Shown: piece after piece, positions 31,200 to 48,708 of the stretch
Layout: every line of letters starts with the position of its first letter
Numbering within the stretch: the first letter of the stretch is position 1
Source: Promethearchaeota archaeon
Lineage (GTDB): Archaea > Asgardarchaeota > Lokiarchaeia > Sigyniarchaeales > SOKP01
DNA: 60,101 bases
Direction: 5' to 3'
Assembly (NCBI GenBank): GCA_048940445.1
Contig: JBHLON010000021.1
Coordinates: forward strand, 1 to 60,101
Notes under the pieces: model-generated
Seen by the model: the letters and a program-made list of their open reading frames with translations, nothing else
Told to the model about the DNA's origin: nothing
Database searches by the model: none
Program-made: the position numbers and the translations under genes

Positions 31200-32492
31200 A
31201 TGGCAAAACCGGAATATTTTATCGGAGAAGCTTTAATTGGAGAGGCTCCTGATCTCGCCCATATCGATTTAATTATTGGCTCAAAGGATGGCCCTGTTGG
31301 AGTTTCTTTTGCAAATGCATTAAGTTCACCTTCAATGGGTCATGGTGGGTTGTTAGCCTGCATCAGACCAAACTTGTTATCCAAACCCATTAGTCTTGTT
31401 ATCCCAAAAGTTACAGTCTCTAAAATGGAAGAAGCAAATAAAATATTTGGCCCTGCTCAAGCAGCTGTAGCAAAAGCTATAGCCGATGCTGTAGAAGAAA
31501 ATCTTATTCCAATGAATAAACTAGATGAGTGGTTGTTAATTGTAAGTGTGTTTATTCATCCCGCTGCGACTGACTACCGAAAGATTTATCAGTATAATTA
31601 TGGAGCTACAAAATTGGCAATCCAAAGAGCATTAAAGCATTATCCTCCTATAGAAAAAATCTTTTATGACAAAGATCGTGCAAAGCATCCTGTAGCAGGA
31701 TTAAGAGTTCCAAGATTGTGGAGACCCCCCTATCTTCAAATCGCATTAGATCATCCAGAACTCTCACACCAAATAAAAGTGGTGCAACAATTACCAAAGA
31801 GCGATAGAATTATTCTTGAGGTTGGGACTCCCTTTCTAAAGAAATATGGAGTAGAAGCAATTAAGAAAATTCGAGAACTAGAATCTGATAAATTTATTGT
31901 TGCTGATTTGAAAACTCTTGACGTAGGAAAATTAGAAGTAGATTTTGCATTTGATGCTACTGCTGATGCTGTTGTGGCTAGTGGACTGGCATCGGCTTCC
32001 TCCCTTGATAAGTTTATTTTGGAAGCCCAAAGACTTGGAATTTATGCTTTTATAGATACCATGGAAGTTGCGGATCCAGTAAGCAAATTAAAACTACTAA
32101 AACAAATTCCTAATGTAGTAGTTCTGCATAGAGCTATTGATGTTGAACTTGCTACAGAATCGACGTCACCAGATGCAGAACAACGAGCACGATGGGGATT
32201 AGTACCTGAAATAAAGCAATTATATAAAGATAAAAAATTGGCTTCCGGTAAAGATCGTGTACTTATTGCTGTTGCTGGAGGAATCGAACCTTCTACTGGC
32301 AGATATGCACTTGAAATGGGCGCGGATATTTTGATTATAGGGAGGTTTATAACGTCATCTAAAGATATTAAAAATTCAACAAGACAATTGCTTAATATGA
32401 TACCTGGTTATTCAGATATTGACTTAAAGAGAATTCATACCGAAGATGATGATAGCTCAGTAAATCAAAGAGCTGCGGCAAAATGGGATTAA
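31200..32492 (+). CDS. fae-hps: Bifunctional formaldehyde-activating enzyme / 3-hexulose-6-phosphate synthase
   Basis: GEALIG...AHIDL.IG.K.GPVG, FGPAQAAVAKA, YNYGATK; PPYLQIALD, EVGTP, ADLKTLD.G, HRAID, VAGG. Confidence 0.95.
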   Translation: MAKPEYFIGEALIGEAPDLAHIDLIIGSKDGPVGVSFANALSSPSMGHGGLLACIRPNLLSKPISLVIPKVTVSKMEEANKIFGPAQAAVAKAIADAVEENLIPMNKLDEWLLIVSVFIHPAATDYRKIYQYNYGATKLAIQRALKHYPPIEKIFYDKDRAKHPVAGLRVPRLWRPPYLQIALDHPELSHQIKVVQQLPKSDRIILEVGTPFLKKYGVEAIKKIRELESDKFIVADLKTLDVGKLEVDFAFDATADAVVASGLASASSLDKFILEAQRLGIYAFIDTMEVADPVSKLKLLKQIPNVVVLHRAIDVELATESTSPDAEQRARWGLVPEIKQLYKDKKLASGKDRVLIAVAGGIEPSTGRYALEMGADILIIGRFITSSKDIKNSTRQLLNMIPGYSDIDLKRIHTEDDDSSVNQRAAAKWD

Positions 32493-33391: not shown

Positions 33392-34906
33392 CTATCGAGT
33401 AATTTGAGTTGCGGATTTAAATTTTTGATTTAACGGAGGGGACTTCACCTTTTTTTGACGTTCTTTTATTTTTTCTAGAGCTTCTTGAACCATTTTTTCT
33501 TTTTTTGAATATTTTTCAAATAGTTCAGAAAAGGTGCTAATATCAATGTCTCTGTTATCATATAAAAACTGTAGTTGTTTAATAACTCGTCCTATTGCGG
33601 CTTTTTCATTTCGGAGCGACTCGAATTCATTTATTCGAAATTTTGTATCAGGCTTGAACTTTAATAATTCCTGCAATTCACTTTGTTCAAGTCTTGTTGA
33701 GGGAAATTTAGTTAAATACATTGTAGATTTTGGAGCAATAAGGGGAGTATTCTCAGGAATAATGACAATCGGTTCAGGGTCATCTATCCTTTTAGCATCA
33801 ATTGTTTTAATAGCAGGAACATCATTTTCAATAATTTCTTTATTAACTAAAGATAAATAACCAATTAATTGTTTTCTTCGTTCCTCAGATAATTCTTCAG
33901 AGTGGGTAACTAGATCTTCCCATATAGCTTCTGCTTCAAGAAAGTAATAATTCGCTTTTTGTAACAGCGACTGAGACTGTTTTGATTGTTGATCATTAAA
34001 TAGTGATCTCGCCTTCATTAAACAAGCTTTCCCGTTATAATAGCTGATTAAAGCTTGTATCTGTTGTATTTTTTTTGGCTCGTGCTGTTTTAGGTAATAA
34101 AAGCGTTTCAATAGAGCAACTAATCCCGAATACATTTTAGAAGTTAGAGTATAATTTTTATTTTCTTCTTCTTCAATTCTAATTGCAAGGTGTTGAGCTA
34201 GAAATCGTGATTCTTCGGATTTTAACTCAAGATATTCTGCAGACAAACAAGTACCAATATCCTCTTGGCGAGTGTGTGCTGTACTAAAATAAGACGCCGT
34301 TTTATAAGCTTTACTACATTGTACCATGCACAATACTGCATTTTGAATCATATTTTCTTCCTCATAATCTTTAGACATGAATGAATAAGCTTGAGCTAGA
34401 ACCCATAAGGCGCGAGCACATTCGAAGTTTAAATCCCAGATTTTTATTTCTCGATTTTCAATCGAGTCATAAAAAGTGGGGTATATATCTAAATCTTTAA
34501 AAATTTTTACTTGACTATAAAGCTTATAGTTCACATTTAGTAATGTAATATATTCATATACATGGTTGACAGACTTCATAGTAATTATTGATATATCATC
34601 TTTCAATGACTCATCAAGCTTTCTTATTTTATGATAGCAATAACGAATTTTTTGCATATGTTCTTCTGAAAAGAAGGATTTCAGTTCAGGAGAAGGAAGA
34701 GGTTTTACATTTTTTGGTCTTTGTTTCAATTTTAATAGCATTTTAGCTCGTGTAATATAATCAAGGGCTAATGATTGATTAATCCCTCTGATAAGGGTTA
34801 ATTCATCTACTTTTGAACACGCTAATTGTTCCACTGTAGTAATACCAGCCGACTTTAAAGATTTTGCACCTTCTTTGCTTAAACCATTTAGTTCTTCAAT
34901 AAACAT
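33392..34906 (-). CDS. HhH domain + Bro1-like helical domain + C-terminal steadiness-box-like hairpin
   Basis: N-terminal IEELNGLS...LKSAGITTVEQLA...IRGI; central LNFECARALW.LAQAYS and LS.E.L.....RFLAQ; C-terminal I..L...D...IDISTF. Confidence 0.6.
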   Translation of the reverse strand: MFIEELNGLSKEGAKSLKSAGITTVEQLACSKVDELTLIRGINQSLALDYITRAKMLLKLKQRPKNVKPLPSPELKSFFSEEHMQKIRYCYHKIRKLDESLKDDISIITMKSVNHVYEYITLLNVNYKLYSQVKIFKDLDIYPTFYDSIENREIKIWDLNFECARALWVLAQAYSFMSKDYEEENMIQNAVLCMVQCSKAYKTASYFSTAHTRQEDIGTCLSAEYLELKSEESRFLAQHLAIRIEEEENKNYTLTSKMYSGLVALLKRFYYLKQHEPKKIQQIQALISYYNGKACLMKARSLFNDQQSKQSQSLLQKANYYFLEAEAIWEDLVTHSEELSEERRKQLIGYLSLVNKEIIENDVPAIKTIDAKRIDDPEPIVIIPENTPLIAPKSTMYLTKFPSTRLEQSELQELLKFKPDTKFRINEFESLRNEKAAIGRVIKQLQFLYDNRDIDISTFSELFEKYSKKEKMVQEALEKIKERQKKVKSPPLNQKFKSATQITR

Positions 34907-35147: not shown

Positions 35148-38100
35148 ATGATGAATATGCAATTAATTGAACATAGAAAAAAGTCGATTAAAACCATTTT
35201 ATTAATTGGATTATTTTTATTTTTTAATCTTACTCCAATTATGCAATATCTAATCCCCAACGGAACAGAGAAAGATAAAATTCATGATGATATAACTCCC
35301 TCCCTCTCTGAGACGAATAAAGCATATATTCATATTGATAATAATTGGACTGAGACGGCAGCTTTTTATGATTGGTGCATAGGCTTAGGATCTTGGAATG
35401 ATCCGTTTATCATAAAAGATTTAGAAATACATATAAATAGTTCAATTGCAGGGATTTACATCAATAACTCTCAAAATGTTTATTTTATTATAAAAGATTG
35501 TTTAGTGAGCAATAATTCTACGAAAGCATTAAGTGCTGGGATAAGATTGGAAAATTGTATTAATGGTAGAATTACGGATTGCGTATCTAATCGCAATTCA
35601 GTTGGGATTATGCTTATTAATAATTATAATTCATCCATTGATAATTGTAATGTCTCTTCTAATAATTTCGGAGTATACATTGAACAGAGTAGTAGTGATA
35701 TTAGCATCTATGAAAATAATATCTTAAACAATGTAATTCAAGGAGTCAATATTACAAATTCTAACGATAATTTAATCTACAATAACAATTTTAAAAACAA
35801 TACAATGCATGCAATTGATTTGGGTGCAAATAATGCTTGGAATAAAGAGGATCAAGGAAATTATTGGGATGATTATGATGGGAAAGATGCGGATGATAAT
35901 GGAATAGGAGATTCTCCATACATAATTTCTGGTTCTGCAGGAGGGCACGATAATTATCCCATTTGGTGGGATGCCCCTGTTATTAATGTAATTTCCCCCC
36001 TCCCCTACTCATTATTTGGAGTTTTACCGCTTAACTTTAGTGTCTCTTTAGAAGAAGGAGTAAGCCATAGTTGGTGGTATATGATTGATACAAATCCAAC
36101 CAAGAATCAATTCATCACAAATGGGTCAATTGATCCGCTTCTTTGGAGTCTAATGGTAAACGGTTCACATACTATTTTCTTTTATGTCAATGATAGTAGA
36201 GGATACGAAGATTTTGAAGCAATAGTTATTTATAAGGATATTGAAACACCTTCGATTGACATTATCTTTCCTGAAAGTAATTTCATATTTGGAAATAGTT
36301 CATGTAATTATACTATTGTCATCCTCGAATCGAATCTTAATTCAACTTGGTACAAAGTAAATAATGGATCTTCAGTTTACTTTAATGGAATTTCTGGCTT
36401 GAATTATGGTGTTATTTCCGAAAATGAATGGACTTTACAACCTAATGGCTCTATTGTAATAGAATTCTTTGCTAATGACACTATGGGCAATCTAGGAAAG
36501 ATTAACGTAACTGTATACAAAGATATTATCCCACCCATTATTGAACTCGATAAACCAACTCAATTTGAAATCTTTGGGATGGGTCCTCCAGAATGTAATG
36601 TATCTTTTTATGATATAAACGGAGTGAACACAACATGGTATTATTTAACTGATGGAATTACAATAACTCCAACGAGAGAATGGACCGGTGGTATTTATAC
36701 TGAAGATTGGAATGCAATGTCTAACGGAACGGTGACCATTTTCTTTTATGCTAATGATACATTAGGCAATATTGCGTCAGTTAATATATCGATTTACAAA
36801 GATATCATTGCTCCCAGTATTCTTATTAGTGAACCACATCCATACGATCTAGTTGGAGGTAATCCACCTATATGTGATGTGACTTTTTATGATAGAAATG
36901 AAGTCAATACTACCTGGTATCAGTTAACTAATGGTACTTTCACCACAAATTCACGAATATGGACTGGAACAATTGATACTAACGATTGGAGTATGCTACC
37001 GAACGGTACAATTACGATTATTTTTTATGCAAATGATAGCTTAGGAAATATTAATTCTGAAAGTGTTGTTATTTATAAGGATATTATATCTCCTTATATT
37101 ACAATTAATGAGCCAAAAACCAATGAAATCTATGGTCAAAATCCACCTGATTGTGATTTGACTCTATATGATATTAATTTCATTGATAACGTATGGTATA
37201 AATTAACCGATGGAACCACAACTACGAGCGTTCGTGATTGGATGGGTGCTATCAATCTGAATGATTGGAACGCCATGAATAATGGCACTGTCACCATCAC
37301 TTTTTATGCAAATGATACCTTAGGCAATATAGCGACAGCTAACGTTTCTGTATATAAAGACATTATACCTCCCTCTATAACTATTGATAAACCAAATCCT
37401 CATGAAGTATTTGGTGAATCTCAACCAGAATGTAACGTATTATTCGAAGATACTAATGGAGTGGATTCCACATGGTACCAACTAACTGATGGTACAATCA
37501 CCACTGCTGTTCGCGAATGGACTGGAATAATTGCTCCTTCCGATTGGACAACATTAGGCAATGGCACAATCACTATCCTTTTTTATGCAAATGATACTCT
37601 GGGCAATGTAGCGAATAATAATGTCTCAGTTTATAAGGATATCATTGCTCCAATCATAACTATAATTAAACCTGGTCTCCATGATGTATTTGGTGAATCT
37701 CAACCAGAATGTAACGTATTATTCGAAGATACTAATGGAGTGGATTCCACATGGTACCAACTAACTGATGGTACAATCACCACTGCTGTTCGCGAATGGA
37801 CTGGAATAATTGCTCCTTCCGATTGGACAACATTAGGCAATGGCACAATCACTATCCTTTTTTATGCAAATGATACATTAGGCAATATAGCGAATACTAA
37901 TGTCTCAGTTTATAAAGATATCATTTCTCCTTCCATAATTATTAATGAGCCAAAATCCTATGAGCTCTACGGCCAAAATCCACCTGATTGTGATTTGACT
38001 CTATATGATATTAATTTCATTGATAACGTATGGTATAAATTAACCGATGGAACCACAACTACGAGCGTTCGTGATTGGATGGGTGCTATCAATCTGAATG

Positions 38101-41100
38101 ATTGGAACGCCATGAATAATGGCACTGTCACCATCACTTTTTATGCAAATGATACCTTAGGCAATATAGCGACAGTTAACGTTTCTGTATATAAAGACAT
38201 TATACCTCCCTCTATAACTATTGATAAACCAAATCCTCATGAAATATTTGGTCAGGCTGTCCCTGATTGTGATTTAACCTTATATGATAGAAATTCTATT
38301 GATTTTGCATGGTATCAGTTAACAAATGGTATTTTTACTACTGCAATTCGTGAATGGACAGGTATTATTCACATTGATGACTGGAATGCTATGCCTAATG
38401 GAACAGTGACTATTATCTTTTATGCTAATGATACATTAGGCAATATAGGGACATCTAGTGTATCAATCTATAAAGATATCATTGCTCCCAGTATTCTTAT
38501 TAGTGAACCACATCCATACGATCTAGTTGGAGGTAATCCACCTATATGTGATGTGACTTTTTATGATAGAAATGAAGTCAATACTACTTGGTATCAGTTA
38601 ACTAATGGTACTTTCACCACAAATTCACGAATATGGACTGGTTTAATTGATGTCGATGATTGGAATATGATGGTGAATGGGTCTGTGATTTTCATATTAT
38701 ATGCAAATGACAGCGTTGGAAACATAAACTATGAGAGTGTTCTCTTACATAAAGATATTATATCCCCAATCATTATTGTTAACGAGCCTCACTCTCATAA
38801 TGTTTTTGGTCAAATTCCTCCTGATTGTGATTTAACCTTATATGATAGAAATTCTATCGACTACGTGTGGTATCAGTTAACAGATGGCACCCTGACTACA
38901 ACAATTCGCGAATGGACGGGTATTATTCATATTAATGATTGGAATGCAATGTCTAACGGAACAGTGACTATCTCTTTTTATGCTAATGATACTGTTGGCA
39001 ATATAGGGGTATCTAATATATCAATCTACAAGGATATAATAGGTCCGGATATTAATATCATCAATCCAATGCCCCATAGTGTATTTGGGATAAATCCACC
39101 AATATGTGATGTGACTTTTTATGATAGAAATGAAGTTAGTACTACTTGGTATCAATTAACTAATGGCACTTTTACTACAAATTCACGGATCTGGTCTGGA
39201 TCAATTGATATTGATGATTGGAATTTGATGGCAAATGGATCTGTGATTTTTATATTATATGCGAATGATAGTGTTGGAAACATAAATTTTAACAGTATTT
39301 TCTTATATAAAGACATTATATCCCCAATAATCATTATTAATGAGCCTCAATCTTACGAGATCTTTGGCCAAATTCCTCCTATTTGTGATTTAACCTTATA
39401 TGATATTAATTTCATTGATAATGTATGGTACGAGTTAGCCGATGAAATTACAACTACAAATTCTCGTAACTGGACTGGGATTATTCATATTGATGATTGG
39501 AATGCAATGTCTAACGGAACAGTGACTATATTTTTTTATACTAATGATACATTAGGTAATATAGCTACTGCTAATATTTCAGTATATAAAGATATTATAT
39601 CTCCAATCATCATTATTAATGAGCCTCAATCTTACGAGATCTTTGGGCAAATTCCTCCTTATTGTGATTTAACCTTATATGACGGAAATTCAATTGATGA
39701 TGTATGGTATCAGCTAACCGATGGGACCATTACTACAGCAATTCGTGAATGGACTGGTATAATTCACAATGATGATTGGGGCGCAATGTCTAACGGAACA
39801 GTGACTATTACATTTTATGCTAATGATACTGTTGGCAATATTGGAACAGCTAATGTTTCAATTTACAAAGATATAATTGGACCATATATTAATGTCATCA
39901 ATCCGGCCTCCCATAGTGTATTTGGGATAAATCCTCCTGTTTGTGATGTAACTTTTTATGATAGAAATGATGTAAATACTACGTGGTACCAATTAACAGA
40001 TGGTATAACCACGACATCTCCAAGAATTTGGAGTGGCTGGATTTATATTGATGACTGGAATGCAATGTCTAATGGATCAATCACTCTTATCTTTTATGCT
40101 AATGATACCGTTGGTAATATCGGGATGATTGAAGTTTCAATTTACAAAGATATAATTGGTCCATATATTAATATAATTAATCCAACACCCAATTCCGTAT
40201 TCGGAAAACCAGTGCCTAGTTGCACCGTAACTTTTTATGACATTAATGGTTTAGATACAACATGGTATCAATTAACTAATGGTGTTATTACAACTCCTCT
40301 CCGAGAATGGACTAATTTTATCTATACAAGTGATTGGAATGCAATGCCTAATGGAACTGTTTTTATTGTCTTCTTCGCTAATGACACGCTCGATAATATG
40401 ATTTCAGTCAATGTTAGTATATATAAAGATAGTATCTCTCCAGTAATCATTATAAATGATCCGCAACAAGGTCAGTTATATGGAATAACAGCTCCAATGA
40501 TTAATATAAGCGTAAGTGATGCCCATCTTGAAAGTGTCTGGTATCAATTGGATAATGGGTCTATTATCACTCCATATCAAGAATGGTTCGGTTCTATTTC
40601 TCAAGAAGATTGGGACCTGATAGGAAATGGAACTGTAATTGTTCGGTTTATTGCCTATGATTCTGTTAATAATTTAGCCTCAGCTACATTGACTCTCAGG
40701 AAAAATATATTTGATCCCGTTATTATTATATTAGATCCTGTCGAGAATGAATTAACAGGTTTAAATCCACCAGACATAATTCTTTATATTAGTTCTGCAT
40801 CTACAGATACAATTTGGTATCAGATATATAATGCTACTTTCTCTACATCAAGTATAATATGGGACGGCTCCATAAATCTTATAGCTTGGCAAACCTTTGG
40901 AAATGGATCATTAAGCATAATATTTTATATGAACGACACTCTTGGAAATGTAGGATTTGATGTTGTTCTATTGAGAAAAGACACCATATCACCAATTCTT
41001 TTAATCAACTCTCCTACGCCTTTTACCTTATATGGGCTTACTCCTCCAAACGTAAGTATTACTTGTTATGACGAAAACTCAATCTCCTCTATTTCTTATC

Positions 41101-42338
41101 AATTGACAAATGGTGTAACCACTACGTCTTCAAGAATTTGGGATGGCTCGATTCATATTGATGATTGGAATGCTATTGGCAATGGTACGGTAACTATTAT
41201 ATTTTGTGCTGAAGATGTTGTTGGCAATCAAGTTTTTGCTAATCTTACAGTCAGAAAAGACATTATTTCTCCTGATGTGTTTATTTATTATCCTAAAACA
41301 GGTCAATTATATGGTTATCAAAAGCCTTCAGTCTTCTTTTATGTAATTGAAGGAAGTGGCGTTTCTGAGATTTCATATCAATTGATTAGCGATACCTCAA
41401 GTTCTGCAATAATAAATTGGAACGGTGAAATTGCCCAAAGCTTATGGAATGAATTTGGTAACGGCACAATTACTATTTTTATTTATGCTATAGACATCAT
41501 GGGGAATCAAGGCGTTGATTTTGTTATAGTTCGGAAGGATATCATTGCTCCAACCATAATTATAATTAAACCCGGATTATACGATGTGTTTGGTGAATCT
41601 CAACCTGAATGTAATGTATCATTTGAAGATATTAATGGAGTGCATTCCACATGGTACCAACTAACTGATGGAACATTTACCACAAATTCACGAATCTGGT
41701 CTGGATCAATCGATCTTGATGATTGGACAGCATTTGGTAATGGCTCAATCACAATCATTTTTTATGCAGATGATATTTTAGGTAATGTAGCGTCTGCTAA
41801 TGTCTCAGTATATAAGGATATCATTTCTCCATCTATCTCAATACTATCTCCAGCTAAATATCAGAAAATTGGACGAGATGCTCCATTTTTTGAATTAAAT
41901 ATCTTAGAAGGAAACTTAGACTCTTGCTGGTATAGAATTCTTGGTATTGATACGATTATTCTTTTTTCTGGATCCAACGGAACGATTGATCAAATATTAT
42001 GGGAAACAATATGGGACAATACAGCTTTGAATGGAACTATTACCATTCGCTTTTTCGCAGAGGATCGATTGCATAATCTTAATTATAGTGACGTTACTGT
42101 CTTAAAATATTATGAGTCAGAAACGCCCCCTCAACTCCCCACATTTCCAATTGAGCCTCTAGATCTTTTAGCCCTTGGATGTTTAGGTGGTATAGCGATT
42201 TCGCTCCCTTTAATTGTTACAAGGAGTCGAACTTATAAATCAAGTGATAAAAAGAAGAAACATACATTACAGCGAGTACTTATTCTATCAATTTTTCTAT
42301 TAACTTTAGTAACCATAGTAGTTATCACAACTTACTAA
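35148..42338 (+). CDS. Giant cell-surface protein: signal/TM, NosD-like right-handed beta-helix, ~22 Ig-like repeats, two C-terminal TM helices
   Basis: G.GSWNDPFII, Asn-rich beta-helix, GNYWDDY.G.D...GIGD.PY, repeated KD...P.I.I..P...W...NG...FYAND..GN. Confidence 0.9.
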   Translation: MMNMQLIEHRKKSIKTILLIGLFLFFNLTPIMQYLIPNGTEKDKIHDDITPSLSETNKAYIHIDNNWTETAAFYDWCIGLGSWNDPFIIKDLEIHINSSIAGIYINNSQNVYFIIKDCLVSNNSTKALSAGIRLENCINGRITDCVSNRNSVGIMLINNYNSSIDNCNVSSNNFGVYIEQSSSDISIYENNILNNVIQGVNITNSNDNLIYNNNFKNNTMHAIDLGANNAWNKEDQGNYWDDYDGKDADDNGIGDSPYIISGSAGGHDNYPIWWDAPVINVISPLPYSLFGVLPLNFSVSLEEGVSHSWWYMIDTNPTKNQFITNGSIDPLLWSLMVNGSHTIFFYVNDSRGYEDFEAIVIYKDIETPSIDIIFPESNFIFGNSSCNYTIVILESNLNSTWYKVNNGSSVYFNGISGLNYGVISENEWTLQPNGSIVIEFFANDTMGNLGKINVTVYKDIIPPIIELDKPTQFEIFGMGPPECNVSFYDINGVNTTWYYLTDGITITPTREWTGGIYTEDWNAMSNGTVTIFFYANDTLGNIASVNISIYKDIIAPSILISEPHPYDLVGGNPPICDVTFYDRNEVNTTWYQLTNGTFTTNSRIWTGTIDTNDWSMLPNGTITIIFYANDSLGNINSESVVIYKDIISPYITINEPKTNEIYGQNPPDCDLTLYDINFIDNVWYKLTDGTTTTSVRDWMGAINLNDWNAMNNGTVTITFYANDTLGNIATANVSVYKDIIPPSITIDKPNPHEVFGESQPECNVLFEDTNGVDSTWYQLTDGTITTAVREWTGIIAPSDWTTLGNGTITILFYANDTLGNVANNNVSVYKDIIAPIITIIKPGLHDVFGESQPECNVLFEDTNGVDSTWYQLTDGTITTAVREWTGIIAPSDWTTLGNGTITILFYANDTLGNIANTNVSVYKDIISPSIIINEPKSYELYGQNPPDCDLTLYDINFIDNVWYKLTDGTTTTSVRDWMGAINLNDWNAMNNGTVTITFYANDTLGNIATVNVSVYKDIIPPSITIDKPNPHEIFGQAVPDCDLTLYDRNSIDFAWYQLTNGIFTTAIREWTGIIHIDDWNAMPNGTVTIIFYANDTLGNIGTSSVSIYKDIIAPSILISEPHPYDLVGGNPPICDVTFYDRNEVNTTWYQLTNGTFTTNSRIWTGLIDVDDWNMMVNGSVIFILYANDSVGNINYESVLLHKDIISPIIIVNEPHSHNVFGQIPPDCDLTLYDRNSIDYVWYQLTDGTLTTTIREWTGIIHINDWNAMSNGTVTISFYANDTVGNIGVSNISIYKDIIGPDINIINPMPHSVFGINPPICDVTFYDRNEVSTTWYQLTNGTFTTNSRIWSGSIDIDDWNLMANGSVIFILYANDSVGNINFNSIFLYKDIISPIIIINEPQSYEIFGQIPPICDLTLYDINFIDNVWYELADEITTTNSRNWTGIIHIDDWNAMSNGTVTIFFYTNDTLGNIATANISVYKDIISPIIIINEPQSYEIFGQIPPYCDLTLYDGNSIDDVWYQLTDGTITTAIREWTGIIHNDDWGAMSNGTVTITFYANDTVGNIGTANVSIYKDIIGPYINVINPASHSVFGINPPVCDVTFYDRNDVNTTWYQLTDGITTTSPRIWSGWIYIDDWNAMSNGSITLIFYANDTVGNIGMIEVSIYKDIIGPYINIINPTPNSVFGKPVPSCTVTFYDINGLDTTWYQLTNGVITTPLREWTNFIYTSDWNAMPNGTVFIVFFANDTLDNMISVNVSIYKDSISPVIIINDPQQGQLYGITAPMINISVSDAHLESVWYQLDNGSIITPYQEWFGSISQEDWDLIGNGTVIVRFIAYDSVNNLASATLTLRKNIFDPVIIILDPVENELTGLNPPDIILYISSASTDTIWYQIYNATFSTSSIIWDGSINLIAWQTFGNGSLSIIFYMNDTLGNVGFDVVLLRKDTISPILLINSPTPFTLYGLTPPNVSITCYDENSISSISYQLTNGVTTTSSRIWDGSIHIDDWNAIGNGTVTIIFCAEDVVGNQVFANLTVRKDIISPDVFIYYPKTGQLYGYQKPSVFFYVIEGSGVSEISYQLISDTSSSAIINWNGEIAQSLWNEFGNGTITIFIYAIDIMGNQGVDFVIVRKDIIAPTIIIIKPGLYDVFGESQPECNVSFEDINGVHSTWYQLTDGTFTTNSRIWSGSIDLDDWTAFGNGSITIIFYADDILGNVASANVSVYKDIISPSISILSPAKYQKIGRDAPFFELNILEGNLDSCWYRILGIDTIILFSGSNGTIDQILWETIWDNTALNGTITIRFFAEDRLHNLNYSDVTVLKYYESETPPQLPTFPIEPLDLLALGCLGGIAISLPLIVTRSRTYKSSDKKKKHTLQRVLILSIFLLTLVTIVVITTY
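36519..42110 (+). repeat. Intragenic tandem repeat, unit about 279 bp (93 aa), with near-identical blocks
   Basis: Unit starts at 36519, 36798, 37077 and onward at 279-bp spacing; 37407-37597 = 37686-37876; 37137-37406 ~ 37974-38243; 36798-36967 ~ 38472-38641. Confidence 0.95.
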
Positions 42339-43090: not shown

Positions 43091-43750
43091 CTAATGTGTC
43101 TGTATTAACTTAAACTGCTGTTGTTCTTCACTACATCCAACCCATAATGTTTCATAATACAAACATACTTCTTTGCCAGGTATGGTTGGATTATCTATTA
43201 ATGGGAATGCACCATCTGGCCATTGGTTGCTTTCCAATATAATCTTGTCATCAACCGTAAACGTGGCTGTCCAATATTCCACGCAGTTGAGAACATCAGG
43301 GTCAGCATTAGTCCAAACTACGTTGATTGTACCCTTATATTCTCCTTTCTGGCAGAGAGTAATAGATCCGTCAACTGGCTCATAACCACCGGTTACAGCG
43401 ACGGTAACAGAATAACCTAATAAATCATCTTGAGAGATGCACAATGGAAGTACATCAGGCAAGTTATAATCAACAATCTTAATTTCACCTTTTTCGGTAT
43501 CCATACAACCGCAGCCTTTTTGAGCTACAGACACGTTCAGATTATACCCTGATAAATATAAGTCATTACCAGCAATATTAACTTGGACCCTATTATAGTC
43601 CAAATTTATTGGAGGTTTTATAATATCAGTTGTTAGAGAGCCCCCAACCAATGCAAATCCCAACAAAATAGATAAAATCACCAATAGCAGAACCCCCGCA
43701 ACGATAGAGAGATCCAACTTAACTCTATCTATTTTCATGGGTTTATTCAC
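43091..43750 (-). CDS. Cys-rich membrane-anchored extracellular protein
   Basis: N-terminal TM, beta-rich domain with seven Cys including CGC. Confidence 0.7.
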   Translation of the reverse strand: MNKPMKIDRVKLDLSIVAGVLLLVILSILLGFALVGGSLTTDIIKPPINLDYNRVQVNIAGNDLYLSGYNLNVSVAQKGCGCMDTEKGEIKIVDYNLPDVLPLCISQDDLLGYSVTVAVTGGYEPVDGSITLCQKGEYKGTINVVWTNADPDVLNCVEYWTATFTVDDKIILESNQWPDGAFPLIDNPTIPGKEVCLYYETLWVGCSEEQQQFKLIQTH

Positions 43751-44158: not shown

Positions 44159-46414
44159 TTATTTGATAGGTCGTGAATTCGCTTGAAAAATAGGACCAAT
44201 GAACTGGGAGTATAAAATGCTATACTGCATTTGATTTGATACAATTGAAATCATTTCGCTTTCTTTATCAGTAGCAGGTCCAATGATTACTTCCTCAGCA
44301 TCACGGGTAACCGCAAAGAATTCTCCTGTGCTACTGAGTTGTCTAAACTGAATATTTCCCAAAGCCATCATTTTTCTAATAATATCACCATATTGGCCCA
44401 TATCCCAATGGCTAGTGAGTAGGAATCTAGCTGCCTTTTTCTGATAGGCATATTCACTAACAACTTGTAAAACTTCAGGGATAACAGATGGCATGACCAC
44501 AATTATAGAGGATTTAGTTCTAAAGACGGCATCCTTAATTGCAGCGATCATAGCTTCTTTACCTACAATTGGCCAAGTTGTTACCTCCGCTAATTCTGGG
44601 ATTGCTGCTGAAGCACTGAAGATATCCTTTAATTTTGATTCATTCTTTTCTGCTAACTCTGTTGCATCATCAATAGAATTCATAAACCTTAAGGTAAAAT
44701 CAGCAATTGCATCCTTGATATTTTGAGTCGTATCTCTTGTTGTATTAGATAAGCTATTTTGGAGGGTTTTAGCATTTTGTTCATATTTAGATTTATGATC
44801 TGTGAGCATTTGACTTAAATTTCTATCTAAATCCGCTGATTCATCACCCCATAAACTAATTTCATTTGTAATTTTTTCAGACGCATCTGCTTTTCCAGCA
44901 ATAAATTTATTGTCAACTTCTCTAATCCAATTTGATTTTGTTTGTTTTACCTCAGTATCAAAACTAGTATAATGGGTTAAGGAATCGTCTTTATGTTTGT
45001 TAATTGCTTCATCATATTGTCTGTGATGTTGTTTAAGTGAATTTTCTAATCCATCTTTTAACTTTATTGTAGTGTCTGAACAATCCTTCACACCACTTGT
45101 GAGCGTATTATTAATTTCACCAGCCATATCAGTAGCTAATGTCTCTAGTTGAACATTAATTGTTTCTTGAGCCTTTTGGTCAAGATCAGTAGTTTCACTT
45201 ACTACATTATCATTTTCCTTAGTCATTATATCAGTAATTTCACCTTTTAAAGTATCATTAGTATCTCTTGTATCTTTGATATAGTTCTCACTCACATTTA
45301 CGAAATCGTCTTTCATTGGTTCAGTATACTTTAAAACGTTTTGGATTGTAGTCTCATGTCGAGCTTTATATTTTTTCTTTTTGCCCATCCAAAAGAATCC
45401 TTTCTTTGCCATATCGCCTGAAAAGTCAGTAAATCGGTTAGCATGTTCTAAAAGATTCTCGATAAGAGTTAATGTCATGCTTTTAAATTCATTCGTTTGT
45501 TCAGTCAAAATACGGTGTCTCTCATCAACGGTTGCCTTCAAATTAGTAGAAAGTGTGTCAGTTGTGTTTTTCAAATGATTAAGATGTTCCTTCAAAAGAC
45601 GAGAAATTCTTTCTTTTAAATCAGTAATAATTTTATCCATTCGTTCTAAATATTTCTCAAGAATTTGCTCCATTCTAGGTTTTAAATCACTGGCTATAGT
45701 TTTATGTCTCTCCACATGATTATCTAAATCTGTTTTTAAATCTTTTTCTAAATCGTCAACTCGTTTAGAAAAATCATTTAGTAGATCAGATATAAGAGAA
45801 GTTAAATTGTCTTTTGTTTTATTGACAGTTGTCTCATTCTCCTTAATTTTAGAGTCAGAAATAGTTTTCAGATCTGAATTTAATGTATCTAAAATCTTAT
45901 GGAGATTTTCTTCCAATGTTTTGGAAGTATCAGTAAATCTATTTCGAGCTTCATTGATTCGTTCTCTTTTATTATTATTTTTTGTGTCAGAATCAGAAAA
46001 GAATGCTTTAATTTGGTTATCAACAGCTGTCTCAACCTCATTAATGCTTTTATCTTGAATTGCTTCTAATTTTTCAAATCGCTTTGCTTGATCAGCTAGG
46101 ATGTGATCTTTAATTTTTCCAATTTCTTCTCTGAAATCTTCTGATTCTCCAATATATAATTCAAAATAAGGTTCAAGTGGGATAAATCTATCCACAATCC
46201 CAGTTACCTTTTTAAGAAACCCTTTTTCAACTAACCAAGTAGTAATCTCTAAAATTGTTTCATAAGTGAGCTCTTCATGTTCATCCATTAGGGTTAAATA
46301 TACTTCCGATGCGGTAGCTCTCGGTACTCTCAAATAGACTAAATAAACAAGGATTTGCTCCTCAGTGAATCCATATCTAGTGAAAATTTCCTTAGTAATT
46401 TCTTTTAGAGTCAT
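44159..46414 (-). CDS. TrmB-like wHTH + long helical/coiled-coil insert + C-terminal PLD-like (TrmB effector) domain
   Basis: N-terminal GFTEEQILVYL.L...TASEV...LVEKGFL...RF.P.EP; C-terminal W.IVG.EAM......KSSIIVVMP...RD.EEVII. Confidence 0.8.
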   Translation of the reverse strand: MTLKEITKEIFTRYGFTEEQILVYLVYLRVPRATASEVYLTLMDEHEELTYETILEITTWLVEKGFLKKVTGIVDRFIPLEPYFELYIGESEDFREEIGKIKDHILADQAKRFEKLEAIQDKSINEVETAVDNQIKAFFSDSDTKNNNKRERINEARNRFTDTSKTLEENLHKILDTLNSDLKTISDSKIKENETTVNKTKDNLTSLISDLLNDFSKRVDDLEKDLKTDLDNHVERHKTIASDLKPRMEQILEKYLERMDKIITDLKERISRLLKEHLNHLKNTTDTLSTNLKATVDERHRILTEQTNEFKSMTLTLIENLLEHANRFTDFSGDMAKKGFFWMGKKKKYKARHETTIQNVLKYTEPMKDDFVNVSENYIKDTRDTNDTLKGEITDIMTKENDNVVSETTDLDQKAQETINVQLETLATDMAGEINNTLTSGVKDCSDTTIKLKDGLENSLKQHHRQYDEAINKHKDDSLTHYTSFDTEVKQTKSNWIREVDNKFIAGKADASEKITNEISLWGDESADLDRNLSQMLTDHKSKYEQNAKTLQNSLSNTTRDTTQNIKDAIADFTLRFMNSIDDATELAEKNESKLKDIFSASAAIPELAEVTTWPIVGKEAMIAAIKDAVFRTKSSIIVVMPSVIPEVLQVVSEYAYQKKAARFLLTSHWDMGQYGDIIRKMMALGNIQFRQLSSTGEFFAVTRDAEEVIIGPATDKESEMISIVSNQMQYSILYSQFIGPIFQANSRPIK

Positions 46415-46701: not shown

Positions 46702-47388
46702 ATGAAAAAATTAAGTAAAATTCTTTTGAGTACAATGTTTTTAATGATGGTTGTTTCTACTTTTGCTTCATTGAATGTCGTCGCTATCGAATCTCCTGAT
46801 GAATCTTATAATATTCCTATTGACACTGCCCAAAGAACGGTAGAGGCAAATACAAGAACGATGTTTCGTTTTCGGCAACAAACTCAATTGACATTCCAAG
46901 CTAATGTAAATTTAGAATTAAATATGGATTGTCAGGCATTACAAATTGGAGTCAAAGATTTTATAATTGAGATTGATGGAGATCAAAATCTACAGATGAA
47001 TATGACCTGCACAAGAGAAGAAATTCAATTGGGACTGCAAATGGGAAATACATACAGAATTAGAAATCGCAACATGTATCAATATCAAGAAGGTTTTTGT
47101 TGTTATATTGAGTGCAATGGAACCTTCTTACAAGCGAGATTAAGAATACAAGCAACTAACCAGAACAGAGTAGGGACATGGGCTTATTATAACGAAGCAA
47201 CAAATGAGTGGACAGCCGTTCCAACAAGTATTGAAGATGGATATTTGACTGCACTCGTGGATCATTTTTCATACTGGACCATTTTAATTCCGGAAGACAC
47301 TACTCCATACGTAACCATAGGAGTTAGTATAGCCGTTGTAGCTGTTGTCGTTATTCTGGGTGTACTCTATTACAAGAAAAGAAAATAG
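46702..47388 (+). CDS. Secreted, C-terminally anchored surface protein with HFS motif
   Basis: Signal peptide, beta-rich ectodomain, WAYYNE...W...PT...YLTALVDHFSYW, TM, KKRK tail. Confidence 0.8.
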   Translation: MKKLSKILLSTMFLMMVVSTFASLNVVAIESPDESYNIPIDTAQRTVEANTRTMFRFRQQTQLTFQANVNLELNMDCQALQIGVKDFIIEIDGDQNLQMNMTCTREEIQLGLQMGNTYRIRNRNMYQYQEGFCCYIECNGTFLQARLRIQATNQNRVGTWAYYNEATNEWTAVPTSIEDGYLTALVDHFSYWTILIPEDTTPYVTIGVSIAVVAVVVILGVLYYKKRK

Positions 47389-47457: not shown

Positions 47458-48708
47458 ATGGGCTTAAATATTTTAAAGAACAATAAAAGTCGTAGACTTA
47501 GTTTAATAGTTTTATTCATTCTTATTTTCCAATTTACATTTTTTATATATCAAGTTTCAGCCAGAAAAGAAGTTATTCCTGCGTTTTCTATCACTGATGA
47601 AATTAATCCAAATGAAACAGTGAATTATGAATTCCCCAATAACATTATTTTTGGGATATCTACAAATGTTTTTATAGATATTAGTATTGATTATGAAAAT
47701 AGAATATCAAACCGTCAAATATTTTTAATAATCGAAAATTCATCACCAATTTCTCTAAACATTACATCAAAAATAGATATGGGTGGTTTTAACTTGACCC
47801 AGCAACCCAATGCTCCTCGAAAAGGAAATAATCAATATCAATATAGATATAATTGTATTTATCGAATTTCTTCTAATGTAACCATTGAAAATATTACAAT
47901 TCGAAGCTTAAAAACAGGTTTTTATGGTTTAACTCCGACCAATCAATATACAATAGGGCTTTATGAAACTTCTCAAGGTTCATGGCAACTTATAGATACA
48001 ACTCAAACAATAAATGAAACAAGTTCTGAAAATTATTTAGAAAGTTCGCTTTTAAATGTTGAGGCAAATACCGATTATTATATTACTTACTTTGAGATAA
48101 CTGAGGTCTTTGAAGGATGGTTTTGGATAATCTTAATCATAATTTTAGCAGCAGCTTTTGGGTCTATAGCAATCTTAATATCCAAAAAAGATTATTTCCA
48201 TTACCTTAGGACTAGGCAAACACCTATAGAAAAAGGGGCTCATCGATTAAGCTTGGAGGAAGTCTTAGAAAATGAGAATAGAAATTTAATAATAGATTTA
48301 GTGCTTAAAAACCCGGGAATTCATTTCAATGAACTTTTAAGAGAGACAGGAATAGCCGCTGGGAATCTTGTATGGCATCTAGATATATTAGAAACTTATA
48401 AAGTAATAGGTAAAAAGAGAATAGGAAAGTTTATAGTTTATTTTCCATATTATCAAAAAAATCCGATATCAAATTTAGATGTAGAGCTAAGTAAGAGTAA
48501 ATTGACTTTAGAAATCTTGGAAATGATAGAAAGAGAGCCTGGATTATGGAATAACTTGATCACTAAACGCATGAAAGTGGACCATAAGACTATTCAGTAT
48601 CATGTAAATAAATTAAAAGAATTAGGATTGATTAATTTTAGAAAAGATGGACGGAAGAAAAAGATTTATCCTAATCTTGATGCGGAATATTTCAATAATA
48701 AAGATTAA
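47458..48708 (+). CDS. Membrane-tethered transcriptional regulator: ectodomain + TM + tandem winged-helix domains
   Basis: Signal/TM, ectodomain, TM WFWIILIIILAAAFGSIAIL, then LENENR..I...V..NPGIHFNEL...WHL..LE and I.REPG......I.YHV.KL...G. Confidence 0.88.
   Translation: MGLNILKNNKSRRLSLIVLFILIFQFTFFIYQVSARKEVIPAFSITDEINPNETVNYEFPNNIIFGISTNVFIDISIDYENRISNRQIFLIIENSSPISLNITSKIDMGGFNLTQQPNAPRKGNNQYQYRYNCIYRISSNVTIENITIRSLKTGFYGLTPTNQYTIGLYETSQGSWQLIDTTQTINETSSENYLESSLLNVEANTDYYITYFEITEVFEGWFWIILIIILAAAFGSIAILISKKDYFHYLRTRQTPIEKGAHRLSLEEVLENENRNLIIDLVLKNPGIHFNELLRETGIAAGNLVWHLDILETYKVIGKKRIGKFIVYFPYYQKNPISNLDVELSKSKLTLEILEMIEREPGLWNNLITKRMKVDHKTIQYHVNKLKELGLINFRKDGRKKKIYPNLDAEYFNNKD

Follow-up and report, generated by a model that had tools for sequence, protein, structure and literature searches.

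A TrmB-derived protein of Asgard archaea with mirror-paired helical arms and a putative membrane-binding tip

A gene in a Lokiarchaeia genome encodes a 751-aa protein in which two TrmB-type domains, one at each terminus, are separated by two very long helical arms. Mirror-image antiparallel pairing of these arms is strongly supported by four lines of evidence that are independent of structural models, i.e., paired insertions, charge register, covariation, and a mirror deletion. The protein (P0001) represents a variant of the TrmB scaffold that is real, conserved, and apparently undescribed, although its constituent domains are already known, and this variant is probably structural in role rather than a working regulator. 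The gene occupies positions 44159-46414 (ORF 46414-44159, minus strand) of the window, by which we mean the whole 60,101-nt stretch of Promethearchaeota archaeon DNA analyzed here, and its orthologs have a matching start. The closest relatives come from Promethearchaeota (Lokiarchaeia) genomes, share 72-97% identity with the protein, and are nearly all exactly 751 aa long; the protein is labelled as hypothetical or TrmB in databases. The curated families of Pfam and NCBIfam gave no match above cut-off for the 751-aa protein. A sigma-70 promoter scan yielded hits at chance level, the sigma-70 model being unsuited to archaea.

Terminal domains, helical insert and midpoint loop

The TrmB-type winged helix (aa 1-82; 46169-46414, minus strand) gave a weak Pfam TrmB match on aa 13-82 (E=0.0013, under the cut-off here), and the same family is over cut-off in many orthologs (e.g., P0218, P0148, P0163, and P0127). 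The winged-helix fold is intact in the structural models, where it matches the winged helices of Fur, MecI, and TrmBL2, consistent with the wHTH that a preliminary description of this DNA had placed at aa ~1-82. The PLD-like domain, which the same description had located at aa ~605-751, was recovered as aa 610-751 (44162-44587, minus strand); over 131 residues it aligns with subdomain one of the effector domain of TrmB (2f5t, Z 18.3, rmsd 1.8). The protein terminates at the equivalent of TrmB residue 242, before the sugar-binding subdomain, and the second TrmB subdomain with its sugar ligands N305, G320, and E326 is therefore absent. The PLD catalytic motif HxK-x4-D is also absent: Asp D705 is kept, with no conserved His or Lys preceding it.

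TrmB reads DNA via Tyr50 and binds sugar by its second subdomain, and Tyr50 is the key DNA residue in the characterised TrmB, TrmBL1, TrmBL2, and TrmBL3 proteins (PMC4158304). Here, the recognition helix (aa 51-63; 46226-46264, minus strand) is acidic and has Leu55 where TrmB has Tyr50. None of the 56 non-redundant long members has Tyr at this position, three of them keep the preceding Arg, and the recognition helix is variable as well as acidic across the set. The three short TrmBs of the source genome retain the R-I/V-Y signature, including Tyr50. Basic residues of the wing (K67-K68 and R76) are conserved, so non-specific DNA binding is possible, and the net charge of the winged helix did not separate the long family from short TrmBs. 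Judged from its residues, the head does not look like that of a working TrmB. With the R-I-Y signature lost, the sugar-binding subdomain absent, and no conserved operon found, a regulatory reading is weakened, and so are the terms "regulator", "effector domain", and "chromosome tether" that had initially been applied to the protein.

The insert (aa 83-605) contains two Pro (P246 and P366) and 11 Gly, in agreement with the earlier account of some 520 residues nearly free of both. It comprises arm 1 (aa 83-336; 45407-46168) and arm 2 (aa 349-603; 44606-45370), both encoded on the minus strand and both forming an unbroken hendecad helix. The period is 3.66 residues, with a power of 8.0 (arm 1) and 4.3 (arm 2) at 11/3 compared to 0.2 and 0.1 at 3.5. 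In the AlphaFold model, the arm helices are 254 and 258 residues long, whereas TrmB has one short dimerisation helix.

Between the arms lies the midpoint motif KKGFFWMGKKKK (aa 337-348; nt 45406-45371, minus strand), a basic/aromatic loop and candidate membrane-binding tip. Re-deriving the coordinates from the ORF showed that its position at the midpoint of the insert had been given correctly. The motif is the most basic 14-mer in the whole protein (+7; the insert overall is -22), and no other hexamer of the insert favours the interface as strongly as the one it contains (Wimley-White -4.3 versus -2.1 for the best hexamer elsewhere in the insert). It had been called the one aromatic/basic break; this stands in that it is the only aromatic cluster of the insert and its most basic segment, but the arms also carry scattered core Phe and Tyr residues.

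Lokiarchaeia tips share the conserved residues G339, G344, K345, and K347. Scoring for the best basic/aromatic/Gly-Pro window placed it no more than eight residues from the midpoint in 17 of the 19 members that have 751-768 aa, as well as in all 11 longer Lokiarchaeia orthologs scored; the motif keeps its midpoint position in proteins from 751 to 1052 aa. Beyond Lokiarchaeia, a basic/hydrophobic midpoint loop is kept in several Asgard classes, more as composition than as sequence, and within one of the two clades of the head-domain tree (the first, described below) the tips diverge widely (GSAWKALLFGK, KAGLLKRPDP, and RRSFIGRFG). Since composition rather than sequence is conserved, a lipid surface fits better than a specific partner. 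The helical hydrophobic moment of Promethearchaeum-side tips is low (0.07-0.17), so these tips are no classic amphipathic anchor. A search for the tip region retrieved no solved structure or Atlas cluster, an absence that does not in itself make the tip novel. Judging by composition, it is fairly likely that the midpoint loop binds membrane.

Mirror pairing of the arms

Lokiarchaeia orthologs of 751-1052 aa carry equal extra length near aa 170 and aa 510, in the form of paired insertions of +11, +40, +44, about +51, +62, +84, +106, and +150 residues. The arm-1 insertion site, where longer orthologs have 11-150 extra residues, corresponds to aa ~163-176 (45887-45928, minus strand), and the arm-2 site of the matching insertions to aa ~496-512 (44879-44929, minus strand). 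One ortholog is 11 residues shorter in each arm, around 290 and 383. The lengths of the two arms correlate with r=0.998 over 14 length classes and, when further orthologs were added, with r=0.999 over 18 length classes that differ by 22-residue steps in both arms; because the orthologs are phylogenetically related, these coefficients are a description and not a test. The insert measures 521-546 residues in different classes despite an identity of ~20%.

When conserved charged positions were paired in the register i+j=684, nine opposite-charge pairs and zero like-charge pairs were obtained (R95-E589, K102-D582, R112-D572, E117-K567, D143-K541, R159-E525, K227-E457, D231-K453, and K267-E417). 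Other antiparallel registers score no more than 4 (mean -0.1, sd 1.7) and parallel ones no more than 5. For the Heimdallarchaeia family, the best charge register is centred on its own loop. Covariation peaks at i+j 682-689 (z 8.7 versus 4.2 for parallel pairing); on the gap-free 751-aa set alone, the antiparallel value (z 5.2 at 682) is close to the parallel one (z 5.0 at offset 340), and covariation is therefore counted as supporting evidence only. In two short head-only paralogs (P0133 and P0135), one of which is named Sigynarchaeota, aa ~123 is fused to aa ~560, and the ~436 deleted residues are symmetric about 342. P0135 has an additional C-terminal Pro/Lys-rich linker followed by a helical domain.

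The AlphaFold model of the 751-aa protein (mean pLDDT 81, pTM 0.39) consists of the winged helix, a helix at 83-336, a low-confidence loop at 337-345 (tip pLDDT <50), a helix at 346-603, and an alpha/beta domain at 613-749. The Heimdallarchaeia ortholog, which is 19% identical and was folded from its own alignment, also gave two helices broken at its own motif. In both AF2 models the helix is broken only at the motif, where the chain folds back, and both align with solved hairpins centred on the motif. The hairpin and the head contact were deduced from secondary structure and from the ranges over which structural matches align. The match to a 260-aa TrmB model spans residues 1-750 of the AlphaFold model (TM 0.54 as given by this match, rmsd 3.7), and the two TrmB halves thus adjoin in the model. 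Paired indels, charge register, and models therefore agree on the antiparallel fold-back that had been proposed from the DNA alone and place its centre at aa 342, giving ~255 residues (38 nm) per arm, and the predicted structure is in line with the accompanying idea that both TrmB halves are reunited at one end. A homodimer prediction for aa 200-485 gave an ipSAE of 0.34 against a mark of 0.42, a value that is not counted as evidence in either direction.

Three residues of the arms form a further conserved set. His233 and His237 are encoded within 45704-45718 and Cys445, the sole Cys in the protein, at 45080-45082 (all minus strand). They are conserved in 39/40 (H233), 40/40 (H237), and 39/40 (C445) Lokiarchaeia sequences and recur in several distant orthologs; in one ortholog, His233 and Cys445 are lost together. 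His237 lies opposite Cys445 in the i+j=684 register. The three residues may constitute a metal or redox site ~15 nm from the tip, or a mere polar core layer.

Distribution, paralogs and gene neighbourhood

A single-sequence search found matches in 215 of 301 genomes of the Asgard phylum, and a profile search found one in all 10 genomes tried. Named members include Heimdallarchaeota, Jordarchaeales, Freyarchaeum, Atabeyarchaeia, Helarchaeota, Baldrarchaeia, Borrarchaeum, and Harpocratesius. Only archaea are represented in the Atlas clusters of the long form, with Promethearchaeota as the most frequent taxon. A FastTree phylogeny of the head domains is divided into two clades (support 0.95 each); the first contains 750-770-aa forms from several classes along with Lokiarchaeia expansions, and the second mainly tip-less forms of 830-1730 aa. 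Within Lokiarchaeia, length varies 1.6-fold. Many long paralogs are without the basic/aromatic midpoint tip, and five proteins of 968-1162 aa (L121, L122, L124, L129, and L126) have a Pro/Lys/Gly-rich midpoint loop with no aromatic cluster.

The source genome has a single copy of the tip-bearing form and three other paralogs with winged helix, coil, and PLD-like domain (G000 C84:34870-37056, C22:3-1505, and C134:58401-60332), which have shorter coils and C-terminal extensions. Another of its genes, at C134:20027-20923, encodes a coiled coil and a PLD-like domain with no winged helix.

Across the phylum, no operon recurs around the hairpin gene; its neighbours are conserved only as synteny within one family, and the neighbourhood names no partner. 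As a lead towards a Rab-like GTPase, a directly adjacent P-loop gene was looked for and found beside none of the four paralogs examined. In most genomes of its family, but not in other Asgard lineages, the hairpin gene is adjoined by a divergent pair of genes for related membrane-anchored proteins (46702-47388 and 47458-48708, plus strand). The protein of 47458-48708 has a C-terminal cytoplasmic double HTH of the HVO_0163 type and is likely a membrane-tethered regulator. On the other side, a gene for a Cys-rich protein of 219 aa that has a membrane helix at its N-terminus and no Pfam or NCBIfam match (43091-43750, minus strand) adjoins the hairpin gene in the closest genomes only. The most frequent downstream neighbour in the order, on the opposite strand, is a putative Fae-Hps fusion gene (31200-32492, plus strand, in the window). 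The window also contains a gene for a 2396-aa surface protein with a NosD-like beta helix, ~20 Ig-like repeats of ~95 aa, and C-terminal membrane helices (35148-42338, plus strand), as well as one for a protein of 504 aa (33392-34906, minus strand), in which an N-terminal helix-hairpin-helix is combined with a helical body that belongs to no known family.

Possible roles of the TrmB-derived rod

TrmBL2, the Thermococcales chromatin protein (PDB 5BPD), and TrmB (PDB 2F5T and 3QPH) have the identical order of winged helix, helix, and PLD-like domain and are the best structural matches (Foldseek E 9e-8, with TrmBL2 on top; Z 18.3 and 17.5). Like TrmBL2, the 751-aa protein ends without a sugar-binding barrel. 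It differs from both in having two ~255-residue hendecad arms and a loop in place of one short linker helix, in the loss of Tyr50, and in the lack of a target operon. SMC, Rad50, and arcadin-4, the last of which belongs among the Rad50 ATPases (PMC9389158), also unite two head halves, one from each terminus, through a long antiparallel coil whose apex is specialised. The rod described here has no ATPase motifs, hinge, or zinc hook and is built on hendecads instead of heptads; an SMC/arcadin-4 identity was rejected, as a winged helix and a PLD-like domain, not a split ABC ATPase head, make up the termini. Matches to ZorA, SpiroCoCo, and flagellin were far under cut-off and were also rejected.

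The explanation that accounts best for these data, put forward tentatively, is a strut of defined length that is held at the membrane by a putative lipid-binding tip and carries a repurposed TrmB head. In ordinary TrmB, dimers form by domain swapping through antiparallel helices (PMC4158304), and symmetric growth of this helix explains the origin of the rod: on a TrmB/TrmBL2-like scaffold, sequence and models show the short dimerisation helix lengthened symmetrically into two hendecad arms, which are held in register at i+j=684. The resulting rod, about 38 nm long here and about 61 nm in 1050-aa orthologs, has the basic/aromatic loop at its central fold, and at the opposite end the winged helix lies next to the PLD-like domain. 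The loop would dock on the cytoplasmic face of the membrane, with Phe/Trp inserted and Lys on anionic head groups. MinD-type membrane-targeting sequences have a Lys-Gly-aromatic-aromatic stretch followed by basic residues, as does the tip; the likeness is one of composition, the tip being an internal loop of low hydrophobic moment and not a terminal amphipathic helix. More speculatively, the head, which no longer has the features by which TrmB reads DNA and binds sugar, might serve as a self-assembly or protein-binding module, and a partner, or a lattice of the protein's own heads, might be kept at a fixed distance from the membrane. Points against the strut are the low pLDDT of the tip and its low hydrophobic moment, the conserved basic wing residues, the 1.6-fold length range within Lokiarchaeia, the many long paralogs that lack such a tip, and a gene neighbourhood that names no partner.

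The same swapped-domain dimerisation of TrmB implies that an extended, domain-swapped antiparallel homodimer of 75-80 nm would fit all register data, since paired indels, salt bridges, and mirror deletions are accommodated equally well if each arm 1 pairs with arm 2 of the other chain. Such a dimer, with a head at each end and the motifs meeting mid-rod as a hinge or double membrane patch, could cross-link two structures, and the absence of a central Gly/Pro break from many long paralogs and head-only forms would suit it. However, members of the tip-bearing group always have a Gly/Pro loop, variable in length, at the centre. From one side of this loop to the other the hydrophobic stripe is displaced by about two hendecad positions, which prevents the helix from continuing straight through the tip; monomer models fold back too, though a monomer model has no alternative. 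We regard the swapped dimer as unlikely for the tip-bearing protein. A chromosome-to-membrane tether or membrane-state-sensing regulator, whose head binds DNA while the tip holds the membrane, is likewise a minority reading that we consider less probable than the strut. DNA binding might be non-sequence-specific, as in TrmBL2. This reading draws on the intact winged-helix fold, the conserved wing residues, and an architecture closest to that of TrmBL2, and on the nearly invariant His-His-Cys set, which could relay a metal or redox signal along the rod. It is at odds with the loss of Tyr50 and, in all but three of the 56 long members, of its preceding Arg, the variable, acidic recognition helix, and the lack of a conserved target operon.

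The rod also superposes on the cytoplasmic hairpin of chemoreceptors (PDB 2CH7 and 3G67), likewise a long helical hairpin, with Z 10-11.6 and rmsd 9-10, values within the range of generic helical matches. Chemoreceptor hairpin arms vary in length by matched steps. By analogy with the hairpin tip that binds CheA/CheW, the tip of the 751-aa protein could bind a protein or a nucleic acid; its basic and aromatic residues would suit RNA or DNA too, and four of its residues are conserved within Lokiarchaeia. Nevertheless, this is improbable given that the tip sequence varies among lineages, that Pfam and NCBIfam gave no chemoreceptor family match, and that a simple pattern screen of the source genome found no canonical chemoreceptor tip motif. 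At the level of these family searches no sequence relation to chemoreceptors was seen, the tip is basic/aromatic and not a CheA/CheW-binding motif, and the membrane end would be the hairpin tip instead of the base. Exchangeable apolipoproteins (apoA-I and apoA-IV) have an 11/22-residue amphipathic periodicity in common with the arms, which matched Pfam Apolipoprotein with E=1.9e-8, gave weak apoA-I/A-IV matches, and lengthen in 22-residue steps. Arms that open and coat membranes or lipid bodies via these repeats are nonetheless highly improbable: the PF01442 score of 34.7 bits is far from the gathering cut-off of 90, globular TrmB domains occupy the ends, and the strict, fixed register between the two arms shows their hydrophobic faces to be paired with one another.

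In the literature searched, which covered few subscription papers, no description of this architecture, its matched length steps, or the range of the family was found. Asgard archaea are the closest known relatives of eukaryotes, and their cells are unusual in shape, form protrusions, and possess an actin cytoskeleton. To our knowledge, few Asgard structural proteins are known beyond actin, tubulin, and ESCRT. The hairpin family is directly testable: the protein is soluble, variants of different length as well as head-only and tip-less forms occur naturally, and Lokiarchaeia in culture can be imaged. Its phylum-wide range, the rod length kept across classes, and the change of length in matched steps mark it out as a concrete candidate for a spacer or tether attached to the membrane, and a transcription-factor scaffold has apparently been converted to a structural role. 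In a broader and more doubtful scenario, the TrmB-derived rods, an ancient family that spans the Asgard archaea in two old clades, with several members per genome and sizes of about 320-1730 aa, would be an unrecognised structural system, in which tip-bearing members act as putative membrane-anchored rulers and long tip-less members extend or cross-link them via the shared head, so that nucleoid or cytoskeleton might be spaced from the membrane.
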